From Chitinophagales bacterium (GTDB lineage Bacteria; Bacteroidota; Bacteroidia; Chitinophagales; JADIYW01), in contig JAMLHI010000003.1 of assembly GCA_023957235.1 (NCBI GenBank), positions 279,371-343,370 of the forward strand: a DNA stretch of 64,000 nt, in the 5' to 3' direction. The position numbers and the translations under genes are program-made. How positions within the stretch are numbered: position 1 is the stretch's first letter; the number at the start of each line of letters is the position of its first letter. This document shows positions 6,147-49,939 of this stretch, piece after piece. Under the pieces are notes generated by a model. The model had not been told where the DNA came from. It was given only the letters and a program-made list of their open reading frames with translations, and made no database searches.

Positions 6147-6249
6147 ATTCTTAAAATAGCAATAATAAATAAACTAATGATGGAATATTAAAAATAGAAT
6201 ATCAATTTTAGATAGAGATGCCAATAGTTATATAATCTTCAAATTTTCA

Positions 6250-6279
6250 AAATAAAAAAGGCACACTTAAAGTATGCCT
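6250..6279 (-). terminator. Weak rho-independent terminator candidate after the 6303-7118 gene
   Basis: On the minus strand, AGGCA-11 nt-TGCCT is followed by TTTTTTATTTT. The stem is only 5 bp. Confidence 0.3.
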
Positions 6280-6302
6280 CAATATCTATTTAGAATTAAT
6301 AA

Positions 6303-7118
6303 TTAAAACTGAAAATCTTCACTAGTAAATTTAACGTCAGTTTTTAGATTTTTAAACTCATATACTTCATAAATCCCTTCGTTGTCTTCCATTTTTTGAT
6401 AGATTGGTAAATAAGTTGATTTGTCTATATAAACAGTAGTTTTCTTAGCATAAGAAGAGGGTACTTTTATCACTTGGCCAACAGTCAAATTGTTATCAAT
6501 ATCATTAATTTGTTGAATTTTATATTCTGGTAAAGATAATTTGTAACCTAGTTTCCATACTGTGGTTTCATCTGCTTTTACAGTGTGATTAATGATTTTA
6601 TATTCATCATCAAGGATTTCAATTGCCCAACAAGATTTCCCGTCATAAGTAACAGAGCCTTTTATTTTAACAAAGTCTGCAAGTTCTGGAGAGTTGACAG
6701 TAAGACCTCTAGATTTTATGCTTTGTTCGATAATCCTCTTGAAAGTTCCGAAACCTGCTTGGTTGATTGGATGGTGTTGATCCTTCATCAACATTCCACT
6801 ATGTAAATCTAATTTGAGGGTAAGTCCCTTTTTAACCTGAACTTTTGGAGTTACTGCTGGAATGTATAATAATTTTGCAGCGGTAGGTTTTTTGGCATCT
6901 GCATATATTTTCAGTGGAGATGCTTGGTATTTAAAAATAACTTCTGAATTGACTTTTTTAGTTCCAGCAAATCTTTCATAAGCATAGAAATCATAAGTTA
7001 AACTTTTTGCATCGGCACAAGCCTCTAATACCTTTTTTGTAACTTCATTGACATTTTGAGCTTTGAGAACTCCGGCAACTCCGGCAGAAAGAACAAGACC
7101 AAGAAATAATTTTTTCAT
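6303..7118 (-). CDS. Secreted hypothetical protein
   Basis: The internal start MKKLFLGLVLSAGVAGVLKAQ looks like a signal peptide. No catalytic motif was recognised. Confidence 0.5.
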   Translation of the reverse strand: MKKLFLGLVLSAGVAGVLKAQNVNEVTKKVLEACADAKSLTYDFYAYERFAGTKKVNSEVIFKYQASPLKIYADAKKPTAAKLLYIPAVTPKVQVKKGLTLKLDLHSGMLMKDQHHPINQAGFGTFKRIIEQSIKSRGLTVNSPELADFVKIKGSVTYDGKSCWAIEILDDEYKIINHTVKADETTVWKLGYKLSLPEYKIQQINDIDNNLTVGQVIKVPSSYAKKTTVYIDKSTYLPIYQKMEDNEGIYEVYEFKNLKTDVKFTSEDFQF

Positions 7119-21996: not shown

Positions 21997-23247
21997 TTAT
22001 AGAGGTAAACTTGTTTGTAAGGTGGAATTATCTCTGTCGAAAAGTGTTTTTTGGGGAGGTTTTTTAGCTTTTTTTACTACCGGTTTCAGTTTGTTGCAGA
22101 TATAATCCAACGTGAGATAGTGCATCAGGCAGATTCTTACTTTCTCACAAAAATTACTGAAAGTCGTTTTGCTGTCGCAATAAAAGCGTTTGATGAGTTC
22201 AAGTAACAAATAGCTTATCAAAGCCACATAAATCTGCGATTTTACTGCATTTTCACTCGTTCCAAGAAAAGTTTTGATTTGCAGGTTTTGCTTCATCGCC
22301 TTGAAAAAAAGCTCAATATCCCAACGTTTTTTGTATAGGTCAGCTATGGTTCGGGCAGACCAATCGAGGTTGTTGGTAATGATTTCGATTACTTTGTTCT
22401 CATCTTCTTTATAAACGTGTAGAAGCCTTAATTTTTGAGTGTTAATGCCTGTTCCCACCGCTTTTTTAGAAGACAATTCTATGATTTCATCTTTGAGAAT
22501 ATCCTGTTCTTTATCATCGGGAAGTTCTTTTTCTTCGAGACTCGTAAAAACTGTATTTTCTTTGATTCTGGTTACAAAAACATTCTCTGCCTTGATACGT
22601 TTCATCATCAGCGAAAAATCAAAATACCCTCTGTCCTCAACGATTATCGTGCCTTTATCAAATATATTGTTTTCCAATCCGTAGCGGTCGTGGACTTTTG
22701 CTTCCGAGATATTGACCATATCGGGAAGCCCAAGCTGGTCGTCCCAAACCGTGTGGATTTTCAAACCTCCTTTAGCTGTTCGGAACTTTGCCCAATCAAA
22801 TAAACTCAAACACAGACTGATTGTGGTGCTGTCAATGAGTTTGATATTATGGTTTTTGATTTCTTCAATAACGTGGCTTTGGTGATGGGATTTCAAGGTT
22901 TCTTTGTAATAGCTCAACAGTCTGTAATACAGTCCCTCAAAGACTTGATAATTTCGGTTTTTATTGCCATCACTCATCGTAGATTTAGCCGGACTTTGAT
23001 GAAGCTCAATATCAGAAAGAAAGGTGCTACTGATTGATAATCAGCAACTTATGTCCGAAAGGGTGTAACATTTATTCAGCTGTCCGAACAATAAAGCAAC
23101 CAGTTGATCGTAAGTCTTGTATTTATGACAACCTTTGTCGGATTTGTACTTATGGATTTCGGCACGAAGTAAATGAGGAGGAATCAATCTTAAAATTTGA
23201 CCAAGTAACGGTTTATTTGTATTTTTGGAACGCCTGAATAATGCCAT
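21997..23247 (-). mobile_element. IS4-family transposase gene (DUF4372-type N-terminus + DDE domain) inactivated by one in-frame TGA
   Basis: ORFs 23041-23247 and 21997-22977 are in the same frame and are separated only by the TGA at 23041-23043 (..LSDISC*LSISSTFLSDIELHQSPAKSTMSDGNK..). GC content is visibly higher than in the flanks. Confidence 0.85.
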
Positions 23248-23301: not shown

Positions 23302-24105
23302 TTATTCTAAGTTTCGGATTGTTGTGTTTCTAGGTCTATTGTTCAATTTATTTTGAATTGTTTCAACTTGTTTGTCGGTTATAAGATTTAGGTCAGTGTT
23401 GTTTTTGAAATATTGCCTTAGTAGCCCGTTTTGGTTTTCATTACATCCTCTTTGCTGGGAAGAATAAGGGTCAGCAAAGAACCACTTAATATTAAATGCT
23501 TGTTCTACATTTTTGAATCTTGCGAATTCTGTTCCGTTATCGCTCGTTATGGAATGGATTTTATCTTTGAAGGGCATTAGTGTTTGGATTAAGTTTTGCT
23601 CCACAATTTCTGCGTTTTTTGATGGTATTTTTACTATAAAATTGAATAGTGATTTTCGTTCGGTAATGGTAATAAAGTAGCCGTTCGTGCATTTTACCAG
23701 ATCTGTTTCAAAGTCTCCAATGCGAGCCTGATTATCAATAATTTCATCTCTTAGATGAATGGAAAGCTTGTCTTTTATTATCACTCTAGGCTGTTTGTCC
23801 AATTTTCTTTTACGTCGCTTTCTATGCCCTATTCTGAGGTGCTGAAGGAGATCTTCGCCTTCATACCGCCTGTTAGCATATAACCACTGGTAAATTGCTT
23901 CGATGCTTAACATAGGAATATCTCTATTCTTACAGGTAACGGCTATTTGTTCCGGACTCCAATCCCTCTTAATAAGCCATACAATACGCCTAATAATAGC
24001 CCTATCTTTTGTTTTACGACTCCAGGGTTTATAGGCTCTTTTGCAAGCAAAAACGTGAGCTTGTTTGGCTTTGTACTTGTCAGGTGGTGTACTAATGATA
24101 GATTC
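23302..24105 (-). mobile_element. IS30-family transposase gene, 5'-truncated (HTH region missing)
   Basis: The C-terminus SITSDNGTEFARF...RGCNENQNGLLRQYF...NKLNNRPR is typical of IS30. The frame stays open upstream of the annotated Met (PPDKYKAKQAHVFACKRAYKPWSRK..DWSPEQIA) but ends at TGATGA at about 24106-24111 with no start codon. Confidence 0.8.
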
Positions 24106-27034: not shown

Positions 27035-28153
27035 TTAAGAATAAAACTCAAAAATCTTCTCTACTACCATCTCTTGCTCTTCTCGTTTTAGCAGATAATA
27101 TTGAGGAAGACGGAGTAATCTTTCACTTTCTTTACTGGTAAATTTATCTTCCCCTCTAAACTCACCTTCTTTCATACCATATTCAGAAGTGTGAAGAGGT
27201 GCATAATGAAAAGCACTACCTATTTCATTTTTTCGTAGGAAATCAATTAGCGCTTTTCTCTCATCAAAATCAGCAGTTTTCATCCAAAATAGATGACCAT
27301 TGTGTTGAGCATAATCAGGAATTTGAGCAAGCTGTATTTTACCTTCTTTTTCCAGATGTTTTAATTCTTGATAATAAAAATTCCAGTTGGAAAGATATTG
27401 ATGAATGATTTTATCTAACTGTAAAAGCTGACTGTGCAAAATAACAGCCAAGGGTTCAGCAAGTAATGAATTAGTACCCATGTGTTTCCACTCGTAGGAA
27501 TTAGCCTTCCCGTCCAACATTTCCTGTCTATTCGTTCCGAAATGATAAGACTTGATAAAGTTATCCCAAAGTTGGGGTTGATTAATAGAGATTCCTCCAC
27601 CTTCACCGCAGCTGATATTTTTTAAAAAGTCAAAACTAATAGTAGAAATATCACCTAAGTTTCCTAAAAATCGGTCTTTATATTTACAATTGATACCATG
27701 TGCATTATCCTCTATGAGAAATAGGTTATTCTCGGTACACAGTTTTTGTATCTTATCATAATCGCAAGCAACACCAGCATAATTGATAGTTATCACTGCA
27801 ACGGTATCTTTCGTGATAGCACTTTCAATAGCATTGGCACTAACATTCATTGTGCCTGGTTCACAATCTACAAAGACACATTTATAACCATTGAGTGCAA
27901 CCGCGTTTGCTAAAGAAACAAAACCGTAAGAAGGTAAGATAATTTCTTTCCCTTTTTCAGAGGGTAAACTCATCAAAGCCAATTCTAAGGATTGAGTACA
28001 AGATTTCGTAAGTAAAAAATTTGAATAGTTATAGTTTTCAGTAAAATGTTTTGGAATTTCATACTCTCTAATGTTTTTCATTTCTCCCAGATAGAACTTT
28101 TTTAATAGCTCTATTTCGTCTAATGAATAATATGGCACGAAATATGGCAACAT
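27035..28153 (-). CDS. wecE: dTDP-4-amino-4,6-dideoxygalactose transaminase-like (DegT/DnrJ/EryC1 family)
   Basis: Collinear with E. coli WecE as recalled. It has LTKSCTQSLELAL, the PLP lysine context SFDFLKNISCGEGGGISI, and the C-terminus FHYAPLH...GEDKFTSKESERLLRLPQYY. Confidence 0.85.
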   Translation of the reverse strand: MLPYFVPYYSLDEIELLKKFYLGEMKNIREYEIPKHFTENYNYSNFLLTKSCTQSLELALMSLPSEKGKEIILPSYGFVSLANAVALNGYKCVFVDCEPGTMNVSANAIESAITKDTVAVITINYAGVACDYDKIQKLCTENNLFLIEDNAHGINCKYKDRFLGNLGDISTISFDFLKNISCGEGGGISINQPQLWDNFIKSYHFGTNRQEMLDGKANSYEWKHMGTNSLLAEPLAVILHSQLLQLDKIIHQYLSNWNFYYQELKHLEKEGKIQLAQIPDYAQHNGHLFWMKTADFDERKALIDFLRKNEIGSAFHYAPLHTSEYGMKEGEFRGEDKFTSKESERLLRLPQYYLLKREEQEMVVEKIFEFYS

Positions 28154-28522: not shown

Positions 28523-29914
28523 ATGCGAATTCAAAATTCTAAAGTAGATATCATTTTTGTCCAGCCTATGGATATGTTTAGTGCTGTGCCTTATGTCAAG
28601 AGTTTAGGTCATGTTTCATTGCTTAGAGAGAATGGCTATACTGTTCAACTCATTGATCCTGCGCCACATAAATTATCACTTAAAGAAGTAGTTCAAATTA
28701 TTATTGACTCTGAAGCAAAACTTTTAGTTGTTTCTGCTTTTTCGAGTACACTTCCATTTGCCTACCAGCTGACTAATCAAGTGTTTGATCAATGTCCTGA
28801 ATTACCTATTGTTTTAGAAGGCTATCATGTCAATGCTGACCCCAAAATTTTAAACCATATGCAAGTACAGTATGGTTTAAGAGGAGATAGCGAATTTGCT
28901 CTTTTACATTTATGCAATGCATTGCTTCGTCATCAAGAGTTCAATGAATACACGGATGGCTTAGTAGTAAAAAAGAAAAATGAACTCATTGCTAATAAGC
29001 ATGGGGTTCTACAAGATGTCAACACATTACCTCTTCCAGCTTATGAATTTATGGCTCATGGGAAATACTTTTCGGCAAGTACCAATAAGAAGCTCATGTA
29101 TTTGTTTACTACGAGAGGATGCCCTTATGATTGTAATTTCTGTGCGAGTGCTATACAGCGAAATTATCGACATCTTACAGAAGATAATATCATTCATTTA
29201 TTGAAATATTTAATCAATGATCTAAAGTATGAATGGTTAGAGTTTATGGATTTAACTTTTACTATTCATAAAAAGAGAATCATTGAGTTATGCAACAGGA
29301 TTGTTGAGGAAAACATTTGTTTTGAATGGGGCTGTGAAACTCGTGTCGATTTAATTGATGAAGAAGTCCTTATAGCTATGAAGCAAGCAGGTTGTCAAAA
29401 AATCACATTTGGTGTGGAATCTGGGAATGAGCAGGTGAGATACAAAACGGGTAAGAAAATAACTAATCAGCAATTTATAGACGCTTTCCGATTATGTAAG
29501 AAATATGACATCAGGACTATGGCCAATTTTATTATTGGACATCCAGGAGAAACAGTTGAACAAGTCGAAGAGTCCATTTCTTTTTCTAAAAAGATAGATC
29601 CTTTCAATGTGTTTTTCACTCGAATGGTACCTCTGCCAGATGTTTATATATATTCACAAGCTGTCAGAAAGGGGGAAATAGAATCTGACATTTGGATCCA
29701 GTATATGAAAGGAAAGATTGGGCATCCTGTTTATTATACTTCTACTATACCTCAAAAGAAAATAGAAAAATTATATAAAAAAGCTTTACTTTCCTACTAT
29801 GTTAGCTGGAGTACTTTTAGAAAATATTTACCTTTATTTAATAATCCTAAATATTTCTTTAAAGTCATTATAGTGTTTATATCATTTACATTTGGAAAGC
29901 CTAAATTCAAGTAG
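28523..29914 (+). CDS. B12-binding-domain radical SAM enzyme #1
   Basis: N-terminal Rossmann-like B12 domain (DIIFVQP...GYTVQLIDPA) and the CxxxCxxC motif TTRGCPYDCNFCAS. The C-terminus is hydrophobic. Confidence 0.85.
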   Translation: MRIQNSKVDIIFVQPMDMFSAVPYVKSLGHVSLLRENGYTVQLIDPAPHKLSLKEVVQIIIDSEAKLLVVSAFSSTLPFAYQLTNQVFDQCPELPIVLEGYHVNADPKILNHMQVQYGLRGDSEFALLHLCNALLRHQEFNEYTDGLVVKKKNELIANKHGVLQDVNTLPLPAYEFMAHGKYFSASTNKKLMYLFTTRGCPYDCNFCASAIQRNYRHLTEDNIIHLLKYLINDLKYEWLEFMDLTFTIHKKRIIELCNRIVEENICFEWGCETRVDLIDEEVLIAMKQAGCQKITFGVESGNEQVRYKTGKKITNQQFIDAFRLCKKYDIRTMANFIIGHPGETVEQVEESISFSKKIDPFNVFFTRMVPLPDVYIYSQAVRKGEIESDIWIQYMKGKIGHPVYYTSTIPQKKIEKLYKKALLSYYVSWSTFRKYLPLFNNPKYFFKVIIVFISFTFGKPKFK

Positions 29915-29916
29915 CA

Positions 29917-30693
29917 ATGAGCAAAAGTAAACTTTGGTTTTCAGATTATGATAACGAGTACCATCAAAAATATCATGGTATCCTTAGAAGTGATCAGGTT
30001 TCATTCATTCAAGATTTGGAACTATTGTATCCAAAGATAAAAGATGAGGTTGCTATACTTTGGATGAATAAGCAAAGTCAGTTATATGGTAGCTTTGACC
30101 AATTTGATCAATTGCAATATCCTCCCAAATCATGGAAAAAGCTAGTGATTAAAGTATGGGATGTGTGGAGTCACAAAACTCGCAATTTTTTCCCAAACCT
30201 AACTTCGTTTATAGATAAACATCCTGATATTCTGAGTTGTTATATTACTAAGACAGCACCGCTATCTGTAATCAAACAGCATTATGGTGAAACTAATGCT
30301 ACCTACCGAATACATTTGGGATTAAACGTTCCTATTGCAGAAAAGAATGAATGTTCCATCAAAGTCAGTGGAGAGGTAGAAGATTGGAAAAATGGGAAAT
30401 CTTTTGCTTTCATTGACGCAGAGCCTCATGAAGTATGGAATAAAACTAATCAGGAAAGATATGTTCTAATTATTGATGTTCTCCGACCTGAATTTATAAA
30501 GAAAAGAAAGTTTATCTGCGCTAGAATCATTTCTACTCAGTTTTTCTTTTCAATTTTTTCTAGGTTTTTAAAAAAAGAAACATTACATAACATACCAAGT
30601 GCATTCTATACAATTCTAACTTATATTACTTATTGGCCTATTTATCTGTTAAGTGAGGCTGAGAAGAAATATGGTGTTTTAAGGTTTTTATAA
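29917..30693 (+). CDS. Aspartyl/asparaginyl beta-hydroxylase (AspH/LpxO) family Fe(II)/2OG oxygenase #1 with hydrophobic C-terminal tail
   Basis: HYGETNATYRIHLGLNVP core and the distal His in DAEPHEVWNKT. The C-terminal tail is hydrophobic. The gene starts 2 nt after the stop of rSAM #1. Confidence 0.8.
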   Translation: MSKSKLWFSDYDNEYHQKYHGILRSDQVSFIQDLELLYPKIKDEVAILWMNKQSQLYGSFDQFDQLQYPPKSWKKLVIKVWDVWSHKTRNFFPNLTSFIDKHPDILSCYITKTAPLSVIKQHYGETNATYRIHLGLNVPIAEKNECSIKVSGEVEDWKNGKSFAFIDAEPHEVWNKTNQERYVLIIDVLRPEFIKKRKFICARIISTQFFFSIFSRFLKKETLHNIPSAFYTILTYITYWPIYLLSEAEKKYGVLRFL

Positions 30694-30959
30694 GCCATCC
30701 TCCCTATACCGTTTCCATTGGCTTTTCAAGCTAATGGTAAGTTTAAAAAAAAACTACAAATCCCTATCTTTGACTTGCTCTTTGCAAAGCCGACTTTAAA
30801 ACTGTTACTTCGAGTACTGATGTAACCGACTAAAAATAGCACTTCGCAATGCTACTAATGCAATAGGAAACCTTAAAGATTCAACACCTTTAAGAGACTT
30901 TTTACAGGGAATAAATTATAGAAAAGGTAGAGTTTCTGCTATAAGTGCTACTGCCAGAA

Positions 30960-31265
30960 TTAAGCATAGCGAATCACTAATACCATTGAAAACAAATATA
31001 AATAGCAATGAGTAAAACTTGGAGTAATCATTTGGAACATGGTAGTATAAGGCGCGTAATACAACAACACAAAAGGATATTTATTTTTAGTCCAAAAAAG
31101 GAAAATGGAAATTGTAAAAAGAATCCAAAAATAAATTACGAAATTTGGACTGACTAATGAAGAACTATGAACTGTAACTAATTGATATTCAGCAGCCATT
31201 TTTAAATTAGTCAGAAGCTTAAAAATTAGGGTCTTAAGATGGGATTCATATACATACTTATTCAA
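30960..31265 (-). CDS. Possible small membrane protein (uncertain)
   Basis: 101-aa ORF with a TTG start and two hydrophobic segments, lying antisense to the surrounding operon direction. It could be spurious. Confidence 0.2.
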   Translation of the reverse strand: MNKYVYESHLKTLIFKLLTNLKMAAEYQLVTVHSSSLVSPNFVIYFWILFTISIFLFWTKNKYPFVLLYYAPYTTMFQMITPSFTHCYLYLFSMVLVIRYA

Positions 31266-31416
31266 CTTAGGTTATAATATTTTAGAACTTGCTATTAAAA
31301 AAAGGTTCTTATCTAATTATGAACTTTATCAATCGGATAGTTTTTTAAATGATTTTTTGTACTTTTATCTTTTATCAAGCGCATAATGACTTGATATATG
31401 GTTGCAAATGTAATAT

Positions 31417-32079
31417 ATGGGAAAGATTGAAATAATAAGTTTTTTAATACAATATATTACTATATTACTTGTGTCTTTTTTCTATTATTTAAAATATAAA
31501 AAAGCTAAAAATAAATATTCTTCAAATCAGTTAAGTCTGAATTATGAAGATTTAATGTTAATCCTTAAGGATAAATTTAATTTAGAGATTACTATAGTAA
31601 AGACTAACTATAGTACAGAGATATCTTATAATTCCAACACAAAAAAGTTAGCCATTCCTATTAAATATAAAAACCTTTCCCAATGGTCGCTATCCTTAAT
31701 ATACAGAGAAATAGATTATTTAGTTGATACTAGCTTAAAAAACAACAAATTTAGAAACTCTTTTAATAGATTAATTTTTCACTATCTGATAGCCCTTGGT
31801 TGGATTTTTATCGGTTTCATCTTCCTTGATGATGCTATGTTTCCTTTAGTTTTCATCTATTTATTACCATTGTTATTAGCCTATTTTATTAACAAACGAT
31901 ACTCTGATAAAAGTATTGTATCTTTTAACAGCTTCATAAATGAACTTAATTTAAATATAGAACCTCCAGATAAAGAGACCCTTTTTAATTGGATATATAA
32001 GCAGCCTTATTACTTATTAGCAGTTTCATTCTCTAGACAAATAGTTATCTTAAAATGGTTGTTTTCTGACAAAGAATGA
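31417..32079 (+). CDS. Membrane protein resembling YugP-type zinc metallopeptidases but lacking HExxH
   Basis: The N-terminal TM, the KNKYS segment and the later TM pair are collinear with YugP-like proteins as recalled. The position of HExxH reads YREIDY. Confidence 0.35.
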   Translation: MGKIEIISFLIQYITILLVSFFYYLKYKKAKNKYSSNQLSLNYEDLMLILKDKFNLEITIVKTNYSTEISYNSNTKKLAIPIKYKNLSQWSLSLIYREIDYLVDTSLKNNKFRNSFNRLIFHYLIALGWIFIGFIFLDDAMFPLVFIYLLPLLLAYFINKRYSDKSIVSFNSFINELNLNIEPPDKETLFNWIYKQPYYLLAVSFSRQIVILKWLFSDKE

Positions 32080-33488
32080 AGGAAGTTTTACAGTTTTTCG
32101 AGAATTCAACAAGCACGTTATACGATGCTACTTTGACTATACAGTCTACTAAATTGCTCCATACTGCATCTACCAGTAGCAGAGAAGTTGTTCAATATAT
32201 AAATCAAAAACATACTGTCGCTTACCTAACAGAAAACTCCCCACTTGATTTCCTCTTTTGTGAAGTATTGCTTTCGCATTTAGACTGTTATCTTTTTCCA
32301 ATCTCCTTTGAGAGTTTTAAGAATGATGCAGATTACATACTTCAACATCTTAACATTCATTATATACTATTAGATTCTTCTATTCTTAATAATTGGTTGA
32401 TACGAAGACGCAATTGGGAACTGATAAAAAAAATTAAAGGCATCAAGAATATAATCTATTTATTGAAAAATAATGAGAAAATAGGCATAAAACCTTTTAA
32501 TAGCATAGAGTCAAGTATAATATTGAGCACTTCTGGAACAAGCTCAAATAAAAAATTTATTATACAATCTCCAACAAACTTTAAAGAGTCCATCAATGTA
32601 TTTTCATCCACATCTTTATTTAAGAATAAAAAAAAATATATCAATTTATTGCCTCTTTATTTTAGTGGTGGACGGAAAGTATTTTACTCTTGTATATCGA
32701 ATAATATAGATATTCATTTTGCTGATAGCTTTCATATAGAAGATCCATTTGATTTAACATCTGGTACACCTTTTATTTTAAAAAGGCTGATAGAAAACAA
32801 TCCCAAAACCAAGTATCAAGGACAGTCATTTATTTGTGGAGGAGCTAAGCTATCATTAGAATTAATCAGCAAAGCTGAGTCGGTCGGTCTTAAGGTGTAC
32901 AATGTATATGGTTTAACTGAAACATCCTCTATCGCATCATACAACACACCTGACTCCAATTTGCCAAGTTCCGTTGGAAAGCTTTGCTCTATTAATCAAT
33001 ATAAGATAATTAACAACAAGCTATTTATTAAAGGTCCCACAGTAAGCCAATACCAGATAATAAACAAACGACTACACCCTATATTGAATCAAGATGGATG
33101 GCTACAAACCAATGATATAGTTAAAAAACAAGATGGTTATTTATTTATTAAGGGAAGATCTGACTCTAAATTTAAATTGAGCAATGGCTTATTTACTACA
33201 TCAAAAAGAATAATGCAAATTATTCAATCTTATATTTCAATAAAAGAATTTGATATACATAATATTGAAAATGATCACTTTGAAATTTATCTTGATAGAA
33301 AATATATAGAAAGACAATCAATCATTATAGATGCATGCATAAATCTTAATAAAAATGAAAGTTTTATAGTACAAAAGATTAAATTTACAAAGAGCCAAAG
33401 TGATATTAATAAAGTCTCATTTAAAAAAGATACTTGTGATAACGCTGAAACTATTTTAAACGTAATAATAGATGAACATGATAAATAA
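32076..33488 (+). CDS. Acyl-AMP ligase / adenylate-forming enzyme (ANL superfamily)
   Basis: STSGTSSNKK (A3), YGLTET (A5), GWLQTNDIV (A7) and GRSDSKFKLSNG (A8). An ATGA overlap joins it to the upstream ORF. Confidence 0.8.
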   Translation: MKEVLQFFENSTSTLYDATLTIQSTKLLHTASTSSREVVQYINQKHTVAYLTENSPLDFLFCEVLLSHLDCYLFPISFESFKNDADYILQHLNIHYILLDSSILNNWLIRRRNWELIKKIKGIKNIIYLLKNNEKIGIKPFNSIESSIILSTSGTSSNKKFIIQSPTNFKESINVFSSTSLFKNKKKYINLLPLYFSGGRKVFYSCISNNIDIHFADSFHIEDPFDLTSGTPFILKRLIENNPKTKYQGQSFICGGAKLSLELISKAESVGLKVYNVYGLTETSSIASYNTPDSNLPSSVGKLCSINQYKIINNKLFIKGPTVSQYQIINKRLHPILNQDGWLQTNDIVKKQDGYLFIKGRSDSKFKLSNGLFTTSKRIMQIIQSYISIKEFDIHNIENDHFEIYLDRKYIERQSIIIDACINLNKNESFIVQKIKFTKSQSDINKVSFKKDTCDNAETILNVIIDEHDK

Positions 33489-33714
33489 GCTCATAAATAT
33501 TATCAAAGAAGAATTTCCAGAAGTTATTGATAAAACAAAAGTAATTGATCAAAACACATCTATTCAAGATGTGATACCCTTCTCCTCTTTAAACATGGCT
33601 ATACTACTAACATGTATTGAATTAGAGTTTGATGTTGTGATTCAACCTATTGAACTAAGGAAATGCAACACTTTTGAAGATTTATATCAGATTATCTTAT
33701 CATTTAGTACATGA
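33472..33714 (+). CDS. Acyl carrier protein-like
   Basis: 80 aa, with the putative phosphopantetheine site in DVIPFSSLNMAILL. It lies between the ligase and the KAS III gene and overlaps the ligase by 17 nt. Confidence 0.65.
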   Translation: MNMINKLINIIKEEFPEVIDKTKVIDQNTSIQDVIPFSSLNMAILLTCIELEFDVVIQPIELRKCNTFEDLYQIILSFST

Positions 33715-34715
33715 AAGTCCAATCTTCATTTCAAATAAAAGGTATTGTTTCTTCCTACCCTAAACAAGTTATCTTAACCGACAACATGCCATTTAATTCA
33801 ATCTCAGAATTATCTATATTTAAAAGAAAAATTGGTGTACTTAAAAGAAGAAGTTCAAGTGGAAAATTAACCGCAAAAGATCTTGGAACTCATGCAATCA
33901 AAAATCTATTAGATGGTTTAAAGTGGAAGGCAGAGGAAATCGGTCTATTAATCAATGTCACACAGACTCCCGACTACTCTACTCCAGGCAATTCTTATCT
34001 ATATCAAAAAGAATTAGAATTTCCAGATTCTTGCTTCTTAATGGATCTAAACGTAGGTTGTACAGGGTTTATTCAAAGTTTATTAATAGCTTTAGCTCAA
34101 GGAGATTTGTTAAACACTTCAAAGATAATTATTGTTTGTGGTGATACTGATATTCTAACAAGTACAGAAAGACAAGAGTCTAATAAATTAATGGGTGATG
34201 CTGTTTGTGCAATTGCTTTAGAAGCTCAAAATAAGTTGCTTGACTATACATTTAGCTTTCAAACAAACGGATCTGATTTTCAATCTATTTATTCAGAAAA
34301 CAGTTTTGCAAGATCTATTTCGAAAGACAGTTCACATCTTTTATCTCCAGTAATTCAGATGAATGGAGGACTAATTTTTAATTATATTACTCAAATTGTC
34401 ATTCCAAAATTAAAAAATATGGAATTGTCTTTAGAAACTCCCAGTCAGATACATTTCTTACACCAGCCTAATTTAATGTATTATGAATATATTATAAAAA
34501 AGATGGGGTGGGATTTTAAACAAGCACCTACTTGTATTCAGGACTTTGGAAATGTAAGTTCTGCCATGATACCTTTGATAATACAAAAAAATAAGCACTT
34601 ATTACAAAAAAATCAAAAGTCCTTGCTGGTAAGTTTTGGTGTTGGTCTATCATTTATAGCTGCTCAGATAGAACTCTCACATAATTTATTTACTAATGAA
34701 GTGGAGTGTGAATGA
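33711..34715 (+). CDS. 3-oxoacyl-ACP synthase III (FabH-like)
   Basis: Cys-His-Asn triad contexts: LNVGCTGFIQS, FLHQPN and FGNVSSAMIP. Confidence 0.8.
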   Translation: MKVQSSFQIKGIVSSYPKQVILTDNMPFNSISELSIFKRKIGVLKRRSSSGKLTAKDLGTHAIKNLLDGLKWKAEEIGLLINVTQTPDYSTPGNSYLYQKELEFPDSCFLMDLNVGCTGFIQSLLIALAQGDLLNTSKIIIVCGDTDILTSTERQESNKLMGDAVCAIALEAQNKLLDYTFSFQTNGSDFQSIYSENSFARSISKDSSHLLSPVIQMNGGLIFNYITQIVIPKLKNMELSLETPSQIHFLHQPNLMYYEYIIKKMGWDFKQAPTCIQDFGNVSSAMIPLIIQKNKHLLQKNQKSLLVSFGVGLSFIAAQIELSHNLFTNEVECE

Positions 34716-35386
34716 AAGAGAGTTTACCTATTTATATTGTTATTCCAATTTACAATTCTTCAAAATACATTATAGAAGTATTAGATGTCCTATATTTAGC
34801 TTTAAAAGAAATAAGATACCCTAATATTTCAGTTATTCTCAGCGATGATTCTTCTAATGACACAACAGTCTTTATTATTAAAAAGTATATTGAAGAAAGA
34901 AATATAACCAACTTTCATTTATTAGAACGCAAAAAGAATGTTGGTCAATCATTGAACACGATATATGCTATCAGCTCACTTCCAACACCTAGCTACTGTA
35001 TAACAATGGACAGCGATATGCAACCATCTCCCGAGGTTTTAAAAGATTTTATCCCTTATTGCCTACAATCCAAGCAAAATCTTATTATAGGCAACTTCAA
35101 TGTACATAAATTAGGATTGAGATATTTCATCTCAAAACTATATGGATTAATAATCTCTTTTAAGGCTAAAAAAAATCTACTATTTAATTATGGTTCTTCT
35201 TTTCGATGGTTTTATTTTGATGGAAAACTCAAAGATGAGTTTTTTATTCATCAAGGTAGAATAGATATTTTACTCCTTAAAAATTACAAAGAATTCTTAT
35301 TTTACAAAATAGACTATAGTCAATTAAAGAATTATAGTCAATTATCAATGAAACAGTTATTAAAAAATATTATTCGTAACAGCTAA
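34712..35386 (+). CDS. Family 2 glycosyltransferase
   Basis: IVIPIYNSSKYI, LSDDSSNDTT and TMDSDMQ (DxD). Confidence 0.8.
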   Translation: MKESLPIYIVIPIYNSSKYIIEVLDVLYLALKEIRYPNISVILSDDSSNDTTVFIIKKYIEERNITNFHLLERKKNVGQSLNTIYAISSLPTPSYCITMDSDMQPSPEVLKDFIPYCLQSKQNLIIGNFNVHKLGLRYFISKLYGLIISFKAKKNLLFNYGSSFRWFYFDGKLKDEFFIHQGRIDILLLKNYKEFLFYKIDYSQLKNYSQLSMKQLLKNIIRNS

Positions 35387-35387
35387 A

Positions 35388-36275
35388 ATGCGATATATTA
35401 AGATTGTTATATTTATATTTATAGAATTTCTTGTGTTGGGAATTATTATATATTTGACAACCCCCTTACCTGTCTATGAGGTTGAACTAGCTAAAGTTAA
35501 TCTAACAGCTAACAAAGATATTACAGAAGGAAAAAAGTTAGCAAGCGCAATATGCAGAAGCTGTCATTACAATCCAGAGCTCAACAGACTTTCAGGGATA
35601 CAACATGGTAATCCCAAAAAGTTTGGTAAAATATATTCAAGTAATATTACTAAAGATTCTATGTACGGTATTGGTTCTTGGACAGACAAAGAATTAGCAT
35701 ACTTTTTTAAAACAGGAATTAAAAAAGATGGCACATTTATTTTCGATATGCCAAAATATAATTATCTAACAGATGAAGATATTTCAAGTCTAATTGCTTA
35801 TTTAAGAAGTGACGATGACTGGGTTAAACCAGTAGCTTCAATCAAAGGACATACTCAATATTCTATATTGTCTAAAGTTCTTTTAAAGTTTTATTTCAGA
35901 CCCGAAAGCTATATTGAACATATTGCTCCAATTGACAAAAGTGATAGTGTCGCATGGGGAAAATACTTATCAACGGTGAAATATTCTTGTGCTAGTTGCC
36001 ATTCATTTAATGCGTTGACATTTAATAATAAAGAGCCAGAAAAATCTGTTGGATATTTTAAAGGAGGTAATCCACATTATGACGAATATAACAATAAAGT
36101 TTATAGCGCATCTCTAAGACCAGTTTCTAAATATAAACAAGATGATTTTATAAATATGGTTCAAACTGGAATTAAAAATAACTCAACTACTTTGAGGAGG
36201 CCTATGATTCCATTCAATATGCTAGATAAAGATGAAATAAAAGCTATATTTTTATATCTTAAGACACTCGATTAA
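35388..36275 (+). CDS. Membrane-anchored diheme c-type cytochrome
   Basis: N-terminal TM helix and two CxxCH motifs (AICRSCHY and SCASCHSF). Confidence 0.8.
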   Translation: MRYIKIVIFIFIEFLVLGIIIYLTTPLPVYEVELAKVNLTANKDITEGKKLASAICRSCHYNPELNRLSGIQHGNPKKFGKIYSSNITKDSMYGIGSWTDKELAYFFKTGIKKDGTFIFDMPKYNYLTDEDISSLIAYLRSDDDWVKPVASIKGHTQYSILSKVLLKFYFRPESYIEHIAPIDKSDSVAWGKYLSTVKYSCASCHSFNALTFNNKEPEKSVGYFKGGNPHYDEYNNKVYSASLRPVSKYKQDDFINMVQTGIKNNSTTLRRPMIPFNMLDKDEIKAIFLYLKTLD

Positions 36276-36276
36276 T

Positions 36277-36903
36277 ATGGAAGTTGAAACAAATGGGCTA
36301 ACTTTAAGAAGAATGAATTATCATGATATTGAGATGACGAGACAGCATCGTAATAATAGTCAAGTCAATAAATTTTTAATAAATAAAAAATACATTTCAA
36401 GAAAACAACAAGAACTTTGGTTTAATTCTATCAACTGGAATAAAGATTATTATTGGATAATAAAATTTAACGAAAAAGAAAATGGTTTAATATATATCAA
36501 AAATTGGGATGAAAATCTAAATGAGGCAGAGACTAATATTTTTCTCTTTCATGAAGAAGACAAAGGCAATCCTCAAATAATTAGAGCAATTTGGCTTATT
36601 GCATTTCTTTGTTTTGAGATTTTTAAAATAAAAAAGCTATTGTCAAAAACAGACAGTAAGAACATTTCCGCAATTGAAATTGATAATTTTATTGGATTTC
36701 ACCAATATAAATCAGAAAATAACTTAATTTTTTCAATTTGCAATAAGGATTCATTTAACAAAAATAAAGAGAAAATCTTAAATAAGTTTTTTAGAAAACA
36801 TAATAAAGTTTGTATAAAGAATAATCTAAACTTAAATTCAGTATTCGAACAAAAGTTAGACATATTTCTTAATAAGAAAATAAGCATATTCGATATATCA
36901 TAA
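36277..36903 (+). CDS. GNAT-family N-acetyltransferase (PseH/RimL-like N-terminus)
   Basis: LTLRRMNYHDIEMTRQHRNNSQVNKFL...ISRKQQELWF pattern. Confidence 0.55.
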   Translation: MEVETNGLTLRRMNYHDIEMTRQHRNNSQVNKFLINKKYISRKQQELWFNSINWNKDYYWIIKFNEKENGLIYIKNWDENLNEAETNIFLFHEEDKGNPQIIRAIWLIAFLCFEIFKIKKLLSKTDSKNISAIEIDNFIGFHQYKSENNLIFSICNKDSFNKNKEKILNKFFRKHNKVCIKNNLNLNSVFEQKLDIFLNKKISIFDIS

Positions 36904-36921: not shown

Positions 36922-38541
36922 TTACTCAACTATAGTCACTTGGTAAATATTAATATCGCTTTGTGGAATGTGATTTATTAAAACAAAATTCAGATGCATA
37001 TTATATATTAGCTCCAAGTATCTTTCAAAGAGTTTTTTGTACATTTCATCCATGGCAATCAGTCCACATTCTTCAACTATTTGCATCATCCTCTTATCTA
37101 TACGTCCCCAATCCTCTCCAAATTCATCAATAAATATTTTCTGAAAAACAGAATTATTATTCATGTTAGAAGCATCTAAATATTTCCAAACAGTTTTATC
37201 TCTATCAAACAGTTTTATTGGATAAGCATAAGATACATTGATACTACCTAGGTATAAACTTAAGCCATCTTCAGATAACTTATTTCGCAAATCTATAAGA
37301 GAGGTATGAGCTTTATGTATTTTTAATAGATCAGGATAAATATCCTTTCTAAAAGAACCATAATTAAGTATGCCTATAAATCCAATCAACCACAAAACAA
37401 TAATAGCCTTGGCGTTTATTAAATAGTTCATAAGCAGACAGAATATTAGCAACAAAAAGACGCTAGCAAAACGAATGTTTATTTCAGAAAATAAGTTAAG
37501 TAATAATATTAAAGAGACACAAGCAAACAAGCCTAATATTAACTTTATAAAAAAACTCCTTCTATAAAAAACTCCTATACACAAACCCATTAAAAGAATG
37601 GATAACATTATGTATTTAAAATTCACCCATAAACTATCTATTAAGCTTAATATTGTAGATTCATAATGAGAAGATAATGAGTCATTATCTAACAAGTACT
37701 CTTTCATATTATGATGAATAATAACCTCTTCGAAAGATATTTTCTGCAACTCTATATCATTAATAAAAAGTACTTTAGCAAAATTAATGATTTTTTCTCT
37801 ACTGTAGTTTTCAATATCAGAATCATATTTTGAAACAATGCTGCTGCCCATATTATATATTTTTCTTTCATATTTATTAAAGCCTCTCTCTCCATCAATA
37901 TTTGATAAGCTTAATGTTAAATAAAATAAATATATAGCACCTGTAATTAAAAGTAACCAAATCATCTCTTTTTTAATATAGTTGTATATAATAAAAAATA
38001 TCAATGAATAAGTAAAAATCAAAATTAATGGTATTTCAATTCGACATATAATGCCCAAAATCAATATAGCTATTAGTATTAAAAAATTAGACTTACTGAT
38101 GAGTTTATGAGTTTGAATAAACATAATAATACCAATCGTTATCAAACCTGATGACCTAACATTGTTAATAATCACAAAATTGTCTATTGCAAATAAAATC
38201 AACAATATGGGAGCAAAATATTTCAAAGGTGTAGTTGCATTTTTTACTATGCTATAATGAATCAAAGAAAGTCCAATAATATTTGTAATACATCTAAATA
38301 AATCATAATATGGAAAAGTGTTATCAAACCTATATAGAAAATAAAACAAATAGTTTAATAGGAAGTTTTCATTATGAATTTCATAAGGAAATACGCCTAA
38401 CTGTGCAGAGGTCTTAAAATAATAATTAATAAATGGCTCATAATCTTCAAATAATAAATAAAAATAATAATAGATAAATAAGTATATTATTGTGTATAAT
38501 AATAATATATTGATAGGTTTATTAAATTTTATATTTTGCAT
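36922..38541 (-). CDS. Polytopic membrane protein, paralogue D of a 4-member family (GT-C-like architecture, function unknown)
   Basis: About 10 or more TM segments plus a soluble C-terminal domain. It has the RIE motif (ICRIEIPL) and shares the C-terminal YLELIYNMHLNFV with paralogue C (YLNIVYNMNIAFI). Confidence 0.7.
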   Translation of the reverse strand: MQNIKFNKPINILLLYTIIYLFIYYYFYLLFEDYEPFINYYFKTSAQLGVFPYEIHNENFLLNYLFYFLYRFDNTFPYYDLFRCITNIIGLSLIHYSIVKNATTPLKYFAPILLILFAIDNFVIINNVRSSGLITIGIIMFIQTHKLISKSNFLILIAILILGIICRIEIPLILIFTYSLIFFIIYNYIKKEMIWLLLITGAIYLFYLTLSLSNIDGERGFNKYERKIYNMGSSIVSKYDSDIENYSREKIINFAKVLFINDIELQKISFEEVIIHHNMKEYLLDNDSLSSHYESTILSLIDSLWVNFKYIMLSILLMGLCIGVFYRRSFFIKLILGLFACVSLILLLNLFSEINIRFASVFLLLIFCLLMNYLINAKAIIVLWLIGFIGILNYGSFRKDIYPDLLKIHKAHTSLIDLRNKLSEDGLSLYLGSINVSYAYPIKLFDRDKTVWKYLDASNMNNNSVFQKIFIDEFGEDWGRIDKRMMQIVEECGLIAMDEMYKKLFERYLELIYNMHLNFVLINHIPQSDINIYQVTIVE

Positions 38542-40690: not shown

Positions 40691-42379
40691 ATGAGAAATT
40701 ATCGATTCAATTCTCAAAAAAGAAAAACACTTATCACGCATATTGTCTTGATGGTTGTTTATGCTACTACGGTTTACCTGACCTCCGGTGTTGTGCTGGA
40801 GGCTGTTACCCAAAAGGTGGCATATTTTATGTCTACAAGTTTTTTCCCTGAACCTTTTATACAATTTGGATTGAAAGATTATATAGGCGTAAATTATATT
40901 TATAAGTTTCTATTTTCCATTGCTCCTCATATTAATTGGTATCCCTTATCATTCTTTGTGTTGCAATTGATCCTGGGTATTTCTATTGTATATATCCTAA
41001 TTTTTAAATTTTATCTACCACAAAAGACTGCTCTCACCATTCAAGTATTAACATCTTCTTCTATACTCACCATGCTTTTTATACAACAGATATTTTTAGA
41101 GCATAATAGTACCAGCCTGTTGTATGGCGCGGTGGGAGTATGGCTTCTGATATTATACCAAGCTCGAACACTGCAATATATAATAGGTTGTTTATTTTTG
41201 ATAATATCTGTAGCATATAGGCCAGAAGCCACTACAGGAGTTTTACTGCTTTTTGTTCCGATTTTAATTTTATTTCGACTCAAAACTATCAAGCTAGATT
41301 TAATTCATTTATCGCCAGTATTTTTACTTCTTTTTTCCTATTATCTTCTTTTTATTTACAAAACATCCTTTTCAGATGAGATGTACTATCAGCTGGAGCC
41401 AGACTTTGAATATGAGATTATGGACAGAAGAAATGTAGTCCCAATTTCAGCAATGACCAGTCAAAATGATGCTATCAAATATGAAATGGTCAACGCTTGG
41501 CTACTTTGTGATCCGGATACACTGGATGCAAAATTTATACGTTCTATAATCAACAAAGAAAACGTCAATGCGAAATACAACATAGCTTCTATTTTTAGTA
41601 ACACTAAAAACATACGTCAAAATCTCAAAAAGGTTTTTAGTTCTATAGAGTTTATTTCTCTTTTATTTATAATGTTGACCTTATTGGTAGCAATAGAGAA
41701 TAAATGGAGAGGCATCATTAAAAGCCTCATTTATCTATCCTTTATTTTAGCTATCATCATTTTTAATATAGCATCTATAGACACTCAGCTCGACCGTTTA
41801 TTTTTTCAAACAATTATAACTATTGCCTCCATCAACTTAGCTTTTTCTATTTTCACAACCAATAAGAAAGTACGTCTAAATATACTCCACAGCCTCCTTA
41901 TATTTTCATTACCTATCACTCTATATCTTAAGTCGCCTTTCATCATCAATAAAATAAAACAGAATAATGAAAATATCTATGAGCATCTAAATGATATCAA
42001 TGTAATTAATTCATTTTCAGAAAACATCGTCGTCTATATGGGATCACACGATATTTTTAATTGTCATACTTCTATCCTAAACATCCATCCTATCTTTAAT
42101 TCTAAAAAAGTAATTGATTTTAGAATGGCACAATATTATGACACACAAAACCATAGGAATATTCTTAGCAGTATTGTGGGCATACAAAATCCGAGTTATA
42201 TAGATATTCTAAATTTTATTGATGAAAATCGAGATCATATTATGGTCATTGGTAGTCCTGATATAATGAAAGTTTGGACAGGTTACAACCAATTTATTTA
42301 TCAAAAGGATTTCGAATATGAACAAATAAATCATCAATTACTTTCTGATGGTGAGAATATTTACAACTTAAAAAAATAG
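40691..42379 (+). CDS. Polytopic membrane protein, paralogue A
   Basis: Shares AYRPEATTG (R-P-E) and the YYQLEPDFEYEIMDRRNVVP...AIKYEMVNAW block with paralogues B and C. Confidence 0.75.
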   Translation: MRNYRFNSQKRKTLITHIVLMVVYATTVYLTSGVVLEAVTQKVAYFMSTSFFPEPFIQFGLKDYIGVNYIYKFLFSIAPHINWYPLSFFVLQLILGISIVYILIFKFYLPQKTALTIQVLTSSSILTMLFIQQIFLEHNSTSLLYGAVGVWLLILYQARTLQYIIGCLFLIISVAYRPEATTGVLLLFVPILILFRLKTIKLDLIHLSPVFLLLFSYYLLFIYKTSFSDEMYYQLEPDFEYEIMDRRNVVPISAMTSQNDAIKYEMVNAWLLCDPDTLDAKFIRSIINKENVNAKYNIASIFSNTKNIRQNLKKVFSSIEFISLLFIMLTLLVAIENKWRGIIKSLIYLSFILAIIIFNIASIDTQLDRLFFQTIITIASINLAFSIFTTNKKVRLNILHSLLIFSLPITLYLKSPFIINKIKQNNENIYEHLNDINVINSFSENIVVYMGSHDIFNCHTSILNIHPIFNSKKVIDFRMAQYYDTQNHRNILSSIVGIQNPSYIDILNFIDENRDHIMVIGSPDIMKVWTGYNQFIYQKDFEYEQINHQLLSDGENIYNLKK

Positions 42380-48823: not shown

Positions 48824-49939
48824 ATGAAGTATTTAAGCAAATGTTTGTATATTATTTTTATTATAATCTTATTAGAAATATTAGGATGGGGATTGCTAAG
48901 ATTATACTCGACTAATTCTGATTTTATCTCCAATCAGAATTATAATAAAATAAGAGCTATGCTCATAGCAAATAACAATGAGCAAACAGTGTCAAAATAT
49001 ATTCAAGTACCTTACCTAACATATATTCCAAATCCATTATACACAAAAGAAGGATATACCCAGCATAACATCTCTGGTTATAGAGGTACCGAAATCCCAT
49101 TAAAGAAATCTAATAAGTTTCGTATCCTATGCCTTGGAGGCTCTACAACTTATGGGACAGGTGTCGATAACCCTTCAGACTCTTATCCTGCTCAATTAGA
49201 AAAGATATTAAATAAATCTCTTTTACAAGAGACAGAGGTTATTAATGCTGGACTGGAAGCCGGGACTTCAGCTGAAGAATTAGTGCATTATCTTTTAAAG
49301 TTTAGATATTATCATCCCGACCTAGTAATTATTCATAGTGGAGGGAATGATGCTATGATTGTTGATGATTCAACAGATTTTCAATTAGATTATACTCATT
49401 ATAGAAAGCTAAAATTCTCTTTAGAACCTGCATCCCAATTAATTAGATGCTTATTACATTCAAGATTACTAAGCTTCCTACTTATTCGCACAATCTATAG
49501 TCCATTACTGAATAACAGTGGAGATATGTTTTCCGAGGGCGCTATAAGTTCCAGAAAAATTGCCCATTGGACGAATGCAGAAGTAGTTAAAAGAAGCTCA
49601 GATTATACTTTCAATCCTTTTTATCAAAATCACACAGCTTTAATTAAAAATATTCAATTGGAAGGTACTAAAGTTATAGATTTGACTTTCGGGTTCGATA
49701 CAAGTTTTTATTTAAAAAACAATATGAAAAGGATTATGGAAAACGTTATTTCAAATAATTCAACAATTGAAAAATGTAGTAAAGAATTAGAGATAAATTT
49801 GATTAAATATTCTTACTCTGATATCTCAGAAAAATATTTTTGGTTAGATGATTGCCATATAACAAAAGAAGGAGAAAAAGAAAAGGCCCAATTAATAGCA
49901 GATTTTATTATTGAAAATAATTTAATAGAAAGTGAATAA
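48824..49939 (+). CDS. Membrane-anchored SGNH hydrolase-type protein
   Basis: N-terminal TM. Block I is ILCLGGSTTYGTG, followed by NAGLEAG and HSGGNDA, and block V is DDCHITKEG (DxxH). Confidence 0.75.
   Translation: MKYLSKCLYIIFIIILLEILGWGLLRLYSTNSDFISNQNYNKIRAMLIANNNEQTVSKYIQVPYLTYIPNPLYTKEGYTQHNISGYRGTEIPLKKSNKFRILCLGGSTTYGTGVDNPSDSYPAQLEKILNKSLLQETEVINAGLEAGTSAEELVHYLLKFRYYHPDLVIIHSGGNDAMIVDDSTDFQLDYTHYRKLKFSLEPASQLIRCLLHSRLLSFLLIRTIYSPLLNNSGDMFSEGAISSRKIAHWTNAEVVKRSSDYTFNPFYQNHTALIKNIQLEGTKVIDLTFGFDTSFYLKNNMKRIMENVISNNSTIEKCSKELEINLIKYSYSDISEKYFWLDDCHITKEGEKEKAQLIADFIIENNLIESE

Follow-up and report, generated by a model that had tools for sequence, protein, structure and literature searches.

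A 64,000-nucleotide (nt) stretch of the genome of a Chitinophagales bacterium (assembly GCA_023957235.1, contig JAMLHI010000003.1, positions 279,371 to 343,370 of the forward strand; hereafter the window, numbered from its first nucleotide) carries at 31417-36903 a translationally coupled seven-gene module within a large surface-glycan locus that also has an ABC (Wzm/Wzt-type) transporter. The seven open reading frames (ORFs), all on the plus strand, encode in order an orphan membrane protein (ORF1; 31417-32079, 220 amino acids [aa]), an acyl-AMP ligase of the ANL family (32076-33488, 470 aa), an acyl carrier protein (ACP; 33472-33714, 80 aa), a KAS III-like condensing enzyme or acyltransferase (33711-34715, 334 aa), a GT2 glycosyltransferase of GT-A fold (34712-35386, 224 aa), a membrane-anchored diheme cytochrome c (35388-36275, 295 aa), and a GNAT N-acyltransferase (36277-36903, 208 aa). 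An initial annotation, made from the sequence alone, had counted eight genes; we find seven ORFs, and the title of that annotation itself names seven functions. Its junctions were all correct. Adjoining genes overlap by an ATGA at 32076, 33711, and 34712 and by 17 nt at 33472, and single nucleotides separate them before 35388 and 36277; in order, the six junctions are -4, -17 (or -11), -4, -4, +1, and +1 nt. The alternative value for the second junction reflects the ACP start: because orthologous ACPs begin MI(E/N)KL, the true start is probably the ATG at 33478, in which case the protein would be 78 aa long and overlap the ligase gene by 11 nt. Nine same-strand junctions in the whole window have a gap of 1 nt or less, and six of these are in the operon.

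The impression in the initial annotation that this segment is more AT-rich and richer in Asn, Lys, and Ile than its neighbors is borne out by computed profiles. GC content is 0.275 in operon genes versus 0.322 in the other 44 genes of the window (Mann-Whitney p=0.0003), and the summed fraction of Asn, Lys, and Ile is 0.30 versus 0.236 (p=0.001). GC content at third codon positions is only slightly apart (0.231 in the operon and 0.261 in the other genes); the shift in composition is therefore mostly at the amino-acid level and gives no clear sign of foreign origin. A scan for sigma-70-type promoters returned matches no more frequent than in shuffled sequence. The Bacteroidota -7 motif (TAnnTTTG) occurs at 28499, before a gene for a radical SAM enzyme (rSAM1), and at 30765, with none close to ORF1. 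Directly before ORF1 is a gene-free gap of 723 nt (30694-31416), for which neither the relatives nor other parts of the window gave a similar sequence; in relatives, the radical SAM gene abuts ORF1.

The diheme cytochrome c has two class-I cytochrome c domains, with heme-binding motifs CRSCH and CASCH, that match Pfam PF00034 and PF13442 at ∼3e-10 (41.6 and 40.4 bits, above the cut-offs). A signal-anchor helix is predicted at residues 6-24. The sequence indicates a protein anchored by this one N-terminal helix with its heme domains facing the periplasm, and covalent attachment of heme is predicted from the CXXCH motifs. Residues C56/C59/H60 and C201/C204/H205 are invariant in 58 of 58 aligned homologs, among which M121 is nearly invariant. 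In an alignment of 12 sequences, M121 and M273 are both invariant, and these two residues are probably the axial heme ligands.

A phmmer search of PDB sequences with the cytochrome returned no matches other than cytochrome c subunits of membrane-bound dehydrogenases, led by a subunit of fructose dehydrogenase (FDH; 7w2j_C, 5.9e-23), which is followed by the beta subunit of FAD-dependent glucose dehydrogenase (FAD-GDH), subunit II of alcohol dehydrogenase (ADH), and aldehyde dehydrogenase (ALDH). An AlphaFold (AF2) model computed from the 58-sequence alignment has a mean predicted local distance difference test score (pLDDT) of 93.4, and its top Foldseek matches are likewise cytochrome subunits of membrane-bound ADH, ALDH, and FDH, with TM-scores of 0.63-0.68 over ∼280 columns (for 8gy2_B, 7e-12 and 0.68). 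Sequence and modeled fold agree in placing the protein with the cytochrome subunits of membrane-bound sugar and alcohol dehydrogenases, as a relative that has two domains. It is homologous in both respects to FdhC (7W2J_C), AdhB (8GY2_B), and the ALDH subunit (8GY3_A) of Gluconobacter and to the beta subunit of FAD-GDH of Burkholderia (8HDD_B), with which it shares the CXXCH motifs, the NIT.D..GIG.W loop of domain 1, and a conserved Met that presumably serves as sixth ligand. It differs from them in having two hemes instead of three (only two CXXCH motifs are present), a transmembrane (TM) anchor at its N terminus, no GIG loop in domain 2, and a biosynthetic operon as its setting. Dehydrogenase cytochrome subunits have hemes of high potential and normally receive their electrons from a catalytic subunit in the periplasm (PMC6472588). 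Unlike them, the operon cytochrome has no catalytic flavo-, pyrroloquinoline quinone (PQQ)-, or Mo-dehydrogenase subunit adjoining it, either in the window or in the four other lineages described below. Operon cytochromes form a distinct subclade marked by a deletion of 5 residues; with it, the GIG loop has been lost from domain 2, and the loop is kept in domain 1. The distant relatives of ∼406-410 aa that were inspected have a third heme domain.

The cytochrome is the only c-type cytochrome recognized in the window, where the one other CXXCH motif is in a PP-loop amidotransferase-like protein. The latter (14318-15523, plus strand, 401 aa) has an SGGRDS PP-loop and a CNYCH motif resembling a zinc ribbon, has no Pfam match, and is not a cytochrome. 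It resembles N-acetyl-sugar amidotransferases.

The operon is conserved in five diverged lineages: W (the window), A (contigs L002/L003), B (L004), C (L005/L009), and D (L013). All derive from metagenomes and, where named, are Chitinophagales. The order ligase, ACP, KAS III, GT2, cytochrome c, and GNAT is common to all five, with an additional gene for a CydA-like protein between GT2 and cytochrome c in lineages A and C. In five of five lineages, the cytochrome gene is located between those of GT2 and GNAT. The initial annotation had called the cytochrome unexpected in such an operon, and it is indeed anomalous, yet present in every lineage; the synteny search thus does not bear out a lineage-specific insertion, which the same annotation had named as a finding that would count against its proposal. 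Gaps at both ends of the cytochrome gene are short. Between GT2 and the cytochrome, the window has +1 nt, L013 has +5, and L004 has ∼+2 (the last from a tblastn alignment); between the cytochrome and GNAT, they are +1, +1, -17, -14, and -11 nt across lineages.

A protein from a Chitinophagales metagenome-assembled genome matches the window cytochrome without a difference over 95% of its length. Cytochrome identity to the window sequence is 71% in lineage A, 63% in B, 54% in C, and 60-63% in D. In comparisons between pairs of lineages, identity is 53-70% for the cytochrome, 35-64% for the ligase, 44-70% for KAS III, 37-44% for GT2, and 33-50% for GNAT; GT2 stands out as the least conserved gene of the operon and the cytochrome as its best-conserved enzyme-sized protein. 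The ratio of nonsynonymous to synonymous substitution rates for the cytochrome is ∼0.22 (window versus L003). Taken with the level of identity and the invariant motifs, this indicates that the gene is neither decaying nor drifting. The cytochrome is a genuine and strongly constrained member of the module.

Some of the flanking genes are conserved with the operon. An ortholog of rSAM1 (55-69% identity) adjoins it in all five lineages, ORF1 is present in four of five, and a homolog of a 539-aa membrane protein, encoded just downstream in the window, is beside the operon in all but L004. The operon clade is rare: a search of GTDB species representatives for further copies returned only the contig that was already known and a Prevotella KAS III with 24% identity, and two scans of JGI metagenomes returned none.

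Outside the operon clade, contexts of cytochrome homologs vary. In one contig (L015; positions 1633-4001, minus strand, and 6001-6951, plus strand), a homolog with ∼37% identity is 2 kb from a pair of genes for a GMC oxidoreductase and a Gluconate_2-dh3 protein. GMC oxidoreductases and Gluconate_2-dh3 proteins are classical partners of this cytochrome family, and the arrangement fits an ancestral role as a dehydrogenase cytochrome subunit. Inspection of six contexts of distant homologs established no conserved partner. Unannotated proteins of 543 aa are encoded near three of these homologs; two are from closely related genomes (88% identity) and the third is unrelated to them. The 543-aa protein of one contig (L007) is not related to the 539-aa family of the window.

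The remaining genes of the operon resemble an acyl-transfer cassette. The domain calls of the initial annotation hold for the ligase, KAS III, GT2, cytochrome c, and GNAT; the match for the ACP is weak, and the first gene, which had been called a pseudo-peptidase, has a different character that is described below. The ligase (Pfam AMP-binding, 1.2e-15) is in the ANL superfamily, with a PF00501 score of 57.7 bits versus a cut-off of 29.9. Its closest named families are MenE-type, with 116 bits versus an equivalog cut-off of 330, which is too low to call it a MenE equivalog, and its best PDB match is also to MenE (7e-12). The SGT and YGLTE motifs, D347, G360-R361, and K451 (the putative A10 lysine) are invariant in five orthologs. 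Judging from its family and its position, the ligase probably loads a carboxylic acid onto the adjacent ACP. Scores of the ACP against profiles are weak (PP-binding 18.6 bits versus a cut-off of 20.8; ACP family NF002148, 1.2e-3). Its Ser39, within an (S/T)SL motif, is located where the (D/S)SL serine of a carrier protein is expected and is invariant in six sequences that include the ACP of an unrelated polysaccharide locus, and in all lineages the gene is located between those of the ligase and KAS III.

The KAS III-like protein (NF006829, 3e-33) scores 46 bits versus a cut-off of 26.6 for ACP_syn_III_C, and its triad of Cys117, His251, and Asn281 is invariant. It is below the equivalog level of housekeeping FabH (best score of 115 bits versus a cut-off of 249 for NF006829). 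The best PDB match is 4efi_A (9e-37), canonical FabH enzymes match at ∼1e-15, and PqsD and CorB are also among the PDB matches. Only four close clusters were found in 5.8e9 proteins, and outside them identity drops to 29%; sequence comparison thus places the protein in a separate small clade. The nearest KAS III outside this clade (29% identity, contig L011) is encoded within a polysaccharide locus with the order ACP, KAS III, ketoreductase (KR), and DegT aminotransferase. The glycosyltransferase (Glycos_transf_2, 5e-19) has no TM segment, and P12-x-Y14-N15, D46, and D100-x-D102 are invariant in its orthologs. The N-acyltransferase matches Acetyltransf_3 (PF13302) at 2.7e-7 (31.8 bits versus a cut-off of 25.4), and its sole NCBIfam match is PseH (TIGR03585, 2.7e-8), with 34 bits, which is far under the cut-off of 93.

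ORF1 has an N-terminal TM helix and two central TM helices. Its assignment as a pseudo-peptidase in the initial annotation finds no support in the profile searches, which returned no match in Pfam (E<=10), NCBIfam, or the PDB. We also rejected a zinc metallopeptidase, as no peptidase family was detected as homologous, the HEXXH motif is absent, and no His is invariant among four orthologs. When 1.84 billion cluster representatives were searched exhaustively with HMMER, only three clusters were recovered, ORF1 itself and relatives at 39% and 25% identity. Orthologs are present in L002/L003 (82% identity), in L013 (27%), and in L005 (37%), where the gene is on the opposite strand and adjoins the rSAM1 ortholog. 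A single-sequence AF2 model of ORF1 has a pLDDT of 44 and is unusable.

Downstream and convergent with the operon, at a distance of 18 nt, is the gene for the 539-aa polytopic membrane protein (36922-38541, minus strand), in which hydropathy predicts at least seven TM helices, followed by a C-terminal soluble part. We sought to match it to a known GT-C glycosyltransferase, polymerase, or ligase and rejected these candidates; it has no Pfam match (E<=10) and no PDB profile match, and a GT-C-like role is a guess. Its homologs beside the operon in L002/L003, L005, and L013 were detected by tblastn at 23-30% identity. In L004, a 549-aa gene is in the matching convergent position, with no detected sequence similarity to the 539-aa protein. 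It is one of four polytopic proteins of 540-560 aa encoded in the window, at 36922-38541 (minus strand), 40691-42379, 49932-51587, and 59068-60741 (all plus strand). None of the four has a match in Pfam, NCBIfam, or the PDB; those at 40691-42379 and 59068-60741 are 26% identical to each other. These proteins may be glycan-processing enzymes, perhaps GT-C-like.

The CydA-like gene of lineages A and C (L002:8759-9949 and L005:8824-10008) is located between the GT2 and cytochrome c genes and encodes 396 aa with a match to PF01654 (1e-29, 103.6 bits). Aligned to subunit I of Escherichia coli bd-II, the protein keeps the equivalents of the heme ligands H19, H186, M393, and E445 but not those of the proton-channel glutamates E99 and E107, and a short loop replaces its Q-loop. 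It is a near-orphan: besides the 90%-identical copy in L005, the best matches in 5.8e9 proteins have 21-24% identity. A tblastn search of the window with the protein returned no match. The two copies are within a 2.5-kb tract (L002 ∼7890-10400) that, in a sliding comparison, is 90-99% identical in nucleotide sequence between L002 and L005, with flanks of 50-67% identity. The tract takes in both GT2 and the CydA-like gene and continues for ∼130 codons into the cytochrome gene, which contains one of the breakpoints.

The pairing with a CydA-like protein speaks for electron exchange between the cytochrome and a heme protein of the membrane, with oxygen as a possible terminal acceptor. For branches of the bd superfamily that lack a quinol site, cytochrome c has been proposed as the electron donor (Murali et al., bioRxiv 10.1101/2021.01.16.426971). 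The CydA-like protein of L002/L003 and L005 is similar to these members (OR-C and "b-type" CydA) in its retained heme ligands, short Q-loop, and adjoining c-type cytochrome. It differs in that heme c is on a separate protein and no second CydA- or CydB-like subunit adjoins.

The operon lies within one large surface-glycan-type locus, extending from ∼14-25 kb to 63 kb of the window. On the minus strand at 27035-28153 is a gene for an NDP-4-keto-6-deoxyhexose 4-aminotransferase (NDP, nucleoside diphosphate) that matches NF008687 at 3e-109. The initial annotation had identified this gene as wecE, supplying a 4-amino sugar; WecE-like is apt, as its 365 bits are slightly under the equivalog cut-off of 375. 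Orthologs with 56-74% identity are present in L004, L009, and L013, and the enzyme is the likely source of an amino sugar. It is followed on the plus strand by rSAM1 (28523-29914), a B12-binding radical SAM enzyme with Radical_SAM and B12-binding domains (HpnJ/BchE-like at ∼1e-40, below cut-offs), and by hyd1 (29917-30693), an LpxO/OlsC-like Fe(II)/2-oxoglutarate (2OG) hydroxylase (Asp_Arg_Hydrox, 2.4e-31). The position of hyd1 varies, being upstream of the ligase in L004 (48% identity) and downstream of GNAT in L013 (74%). The locus also encodes a GFO-family protein similar to UDP-GlcNAc 3-dehydrogenase, epimerases/dehydratases, and a Wzm/Wzt-type exporter comprising a TagH/Wzt-like ATPase and an ABC-2 permease.

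Genes for tailoring enzymes are abundant and comprise three B12-radical SAM enzymes, three LpxO/OlsC-like hydroxylases, six PhyH proteins, two WelO5-like Fe/2OG enzymes, GDSL esterases, and a carbamoyltransferase. Much of this oxygen- and radical-dependent set is densely arranged at 42505-63281 around the Wzm/Wzt exporter, where all six PhyH, both WelO5-like, two further LpxO/OlsC-like, and two further B12-radical SAM genes are located. The product, whether glycan or lipid, probably carries very extensive modifications. In the left part of the glycan-related region are two minus-strand genes, one for a DDE transposase (21997-22977) and one with an rve integrase domain (23302-23913), and upstream of the glycan locus is a plus-strand gene (7297-10569) for a 1090-aa protein similar to type I polyketide synthases (KS-AT-ACP).

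We suggest, with a probability of roughly 45%, that the operon is a cassette for N-acyl tailoring of an amino sugar, to which a periplasmic electron carrier serving an extracytoplasmic oxidation has been recruited. The initial annotation had proposed that a short acyl chain is transferred to an amino sugar or to a lipid anchor, and the amino-sugar part of this proposal fits the WecE-like aminotransferase, the PseH match of GNAT, the setting of the nearest outside KAS III in L011, and a precedent from Flavobacterium psychrophilum. Inferring from family and context, the ANL ligase would adenylate a small carboxylic acid and load it onto the dedicated ACP, and the KAS III-like enzyme would either add one malonyl unit to the acyl group or pass the acyl group on. 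GNAT would then acylate the 4-amino group of the NDP-4-amino-6-deoxyhexose made by the WecE-like transaminase, and GT2 would install the acylated amino sugar. The B12-radical SAM enzyme and the Fe/2OG hydroxylase would probably decorate the acyl chain or the sugar. More tentatively, the cytochrome may drain electrons from oxidation of the exported or lipid-linked product at the outer face of the inner membrane. Electrons would pass from it to the respiratory chain and, in two lineages, possibly directly to the operon-encoded cytochrome-bd-like heme protein. The only operon-linked candidates for reducing the cytochrome are ORF1 and the 539-aa protein. A stronger form of this proposal is that an extracytoplasmic redox step is obligatory in the pathway of a glycan or lipid-linked sugar, that a dedicated cytochrome (with a private bd-type oxidase in some lineages) wires it to respiration, and that ORF1 or the 539-aa protein is the catalyst; in this specific form we regard it as doubtful.

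Parts of the proposed pathway have precedents. In F. psychrophilum, wfpC-wfpG encode a set of ACP, KAS, KR, and acyltransferase that makes a 3,5-dihydroxyhexanoyl group on Qui2NAc4N (PMC6519341). Like the operon, this set is from Bacteroidota and has a dedicated ACP and 3-ketoacyl-ACP synthase(s) within a glycan locus; adjoining these are a sugar aminotransferase and an N-acyltransferase, the latter expected to transfer the acyl group to a 4-amino sugar. The operon differs in having an ANL ligase, GT2, an orphan membrane protein, and a diheme cytochrome c, in lacking a ketoreductase, and in the acyltransferase, which is GNAT rather than PglD-like and so differs in fold. The combination of a DegT-family 4-aminotransferase with a nearby PseH-matching GNAT is also reminiscent of WecE/WecD of the enterobacterial common antigen and PseC/PseH of pseudaminic acid, except that the two genes are here on opposite strands and ∼8 kb apart and that the acyl donor may be acyl-ACP rather than acetyl-CoA. 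For the redox step, there is an analogy to mycobacterial DprE1/DprE2, in which oxidation of decaprenyl-phosphoryl-ribose is linked to the quinone pool. In both cases an envelope sugar precursor would be oxidized at the membrane and its electrons passed to the respiratory chain. The likeness is of function only, as there is no homology, and DprE1 is a flavoenzyme that works without a cytochrome c; no such flavoenzyme was found here.

Several observations weigh against N-acyl tailoring coupled to an extracytoplasmic oxidation. The operon has no ketoreductase or dehydratase, and neither the window nor the surroundings of the operon in relatives yielded a dehydrogenase (flavo-, PQQ-, or molybdo-) or an oxidase capable of reducing the cytochrome. 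The CydA-like gene is absent from three lineages, including that of the window, and its shared 2.5-kb tract indicates one recent acquisition spread by recombination, not two independent associations with the cytochrome. The exclusively metagenomic origin of the five lineages also counts against it. Finally, other Bacteroidota have homologs of the cytochrome (∼40% identity) that stand alone in varied and unrelated contexts, which suggests that members of this family can act as general carriers. The cytochrome could accordingly be an ordinary respiratory carrier that is merely cotranscribed with six biosynthetic genes, as would suit the respiratory character of its sequence family, the non-biosynthetic contexts of those stand-alone homologs, and the lack of a redox partner encoded in the operon. 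A pure passenger, however, is expected to have been lost or moved in some lineages, whereas the cytochrome keeps its slot between GT2 and GNAT in five of five even though identity of the genes on either side has fallen to 33-44%. The gene abuts or overlaps its neighbors at both ends, no other enzyme-sized protein of the operon is as well conserved, and the operon cytochromes are set apart as a subclade by the 5-residue deletion in domain 2. On balance, we consider a passenger unlikely.

Other alternatives change the product or the direction of electron flow. KAS III-like enzymes with ligase and ACP partners, such as DarB, PqsD, and CorB, operate in lipid and metabolite pathways, and the operon might make a free lipid or secondary metabolite of alkyl-pyrone, resorcinol, or aryl-keto type instead of a glycan N-acyl group. 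In that case, GT2 might glycosylate the product, and a redox head group would be oxidized by the cytochrome with or without the bd-like protein. A redox-active product would directly explain the cytochrome, PqsD and CorB are among the PDB matches of KAS III, and the nearest named relatives of the ligase are MenE ligases, which are of the aryl-acid type. What makes this quite improbable is the setting. The operon is embedded in genes for sugar nucleotides and export that are kept in relatives (WecE-like, GFO, epimerases, further GT2s, and Wzm/Wzt), GNAT is PseH-like, and the nearest outside KAS III is in a polysaccharide locus beside a DegT aminotransferase. Electrons could also flow the other way, with the cytochrome feeding respiratory electrons to an oxygen-dependent tailoring enzyme of the membrane or periplasm. 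Oxygen-dependent tailoring enzymes (Asp_Arg_Hydrox, PhyH, and WelO5-like) are unusually numerous in the locus, and two membrane proteins, ORF1 and the 539-aa protein, have no family assignment. But the recognizable oxygenases here are Fe(II)/2OG enzymes, which work without an external electron donor, in the cytoplasm or on the side facing it. In two lineages, moreover, the partner of the cytochrome is a bd-oxidase-like protein, and such a protein consumes electrons rather than supplying them. We view a reductive role as very unlikely and retain N-acyl amino-sugar tailoring with a recruited electron carrier as the working interpretation.

The biosynthetic half of the operon resembles a known type of cassette; the conserved cytochrome, joined on occasion by a private bd-like protein, is the unusual element. 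Amino-sugar acyl-tailoring cassettes and cytochrome subunits of periplasmic sugar dehydrogenases are each known separately. Their combination in one conserved, coupled operon has not been described before, and literature searches for a cytochrome-containing glycan operon returned nothing relevant. If the cytochrome is merely a passenger, the operon is one more variable module for glycan tailoring. If the cytochrome instead takes part in making the product, the functions of three orphan families would become approachable: ORF1, the extremely divergent CydA-like protein, and the 539-aa membrane protein. Should ORF1 or the 539-aa protein be the catalyst, it would represent a new kind of cytochrome-c-linked glycan or lipid oxidase. 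More generally, participation of the cytochrome in synthesis of the product would mean that biosynthesis of envelope glycans can include a respiration-coupled oxidation outside the cytoplasm.

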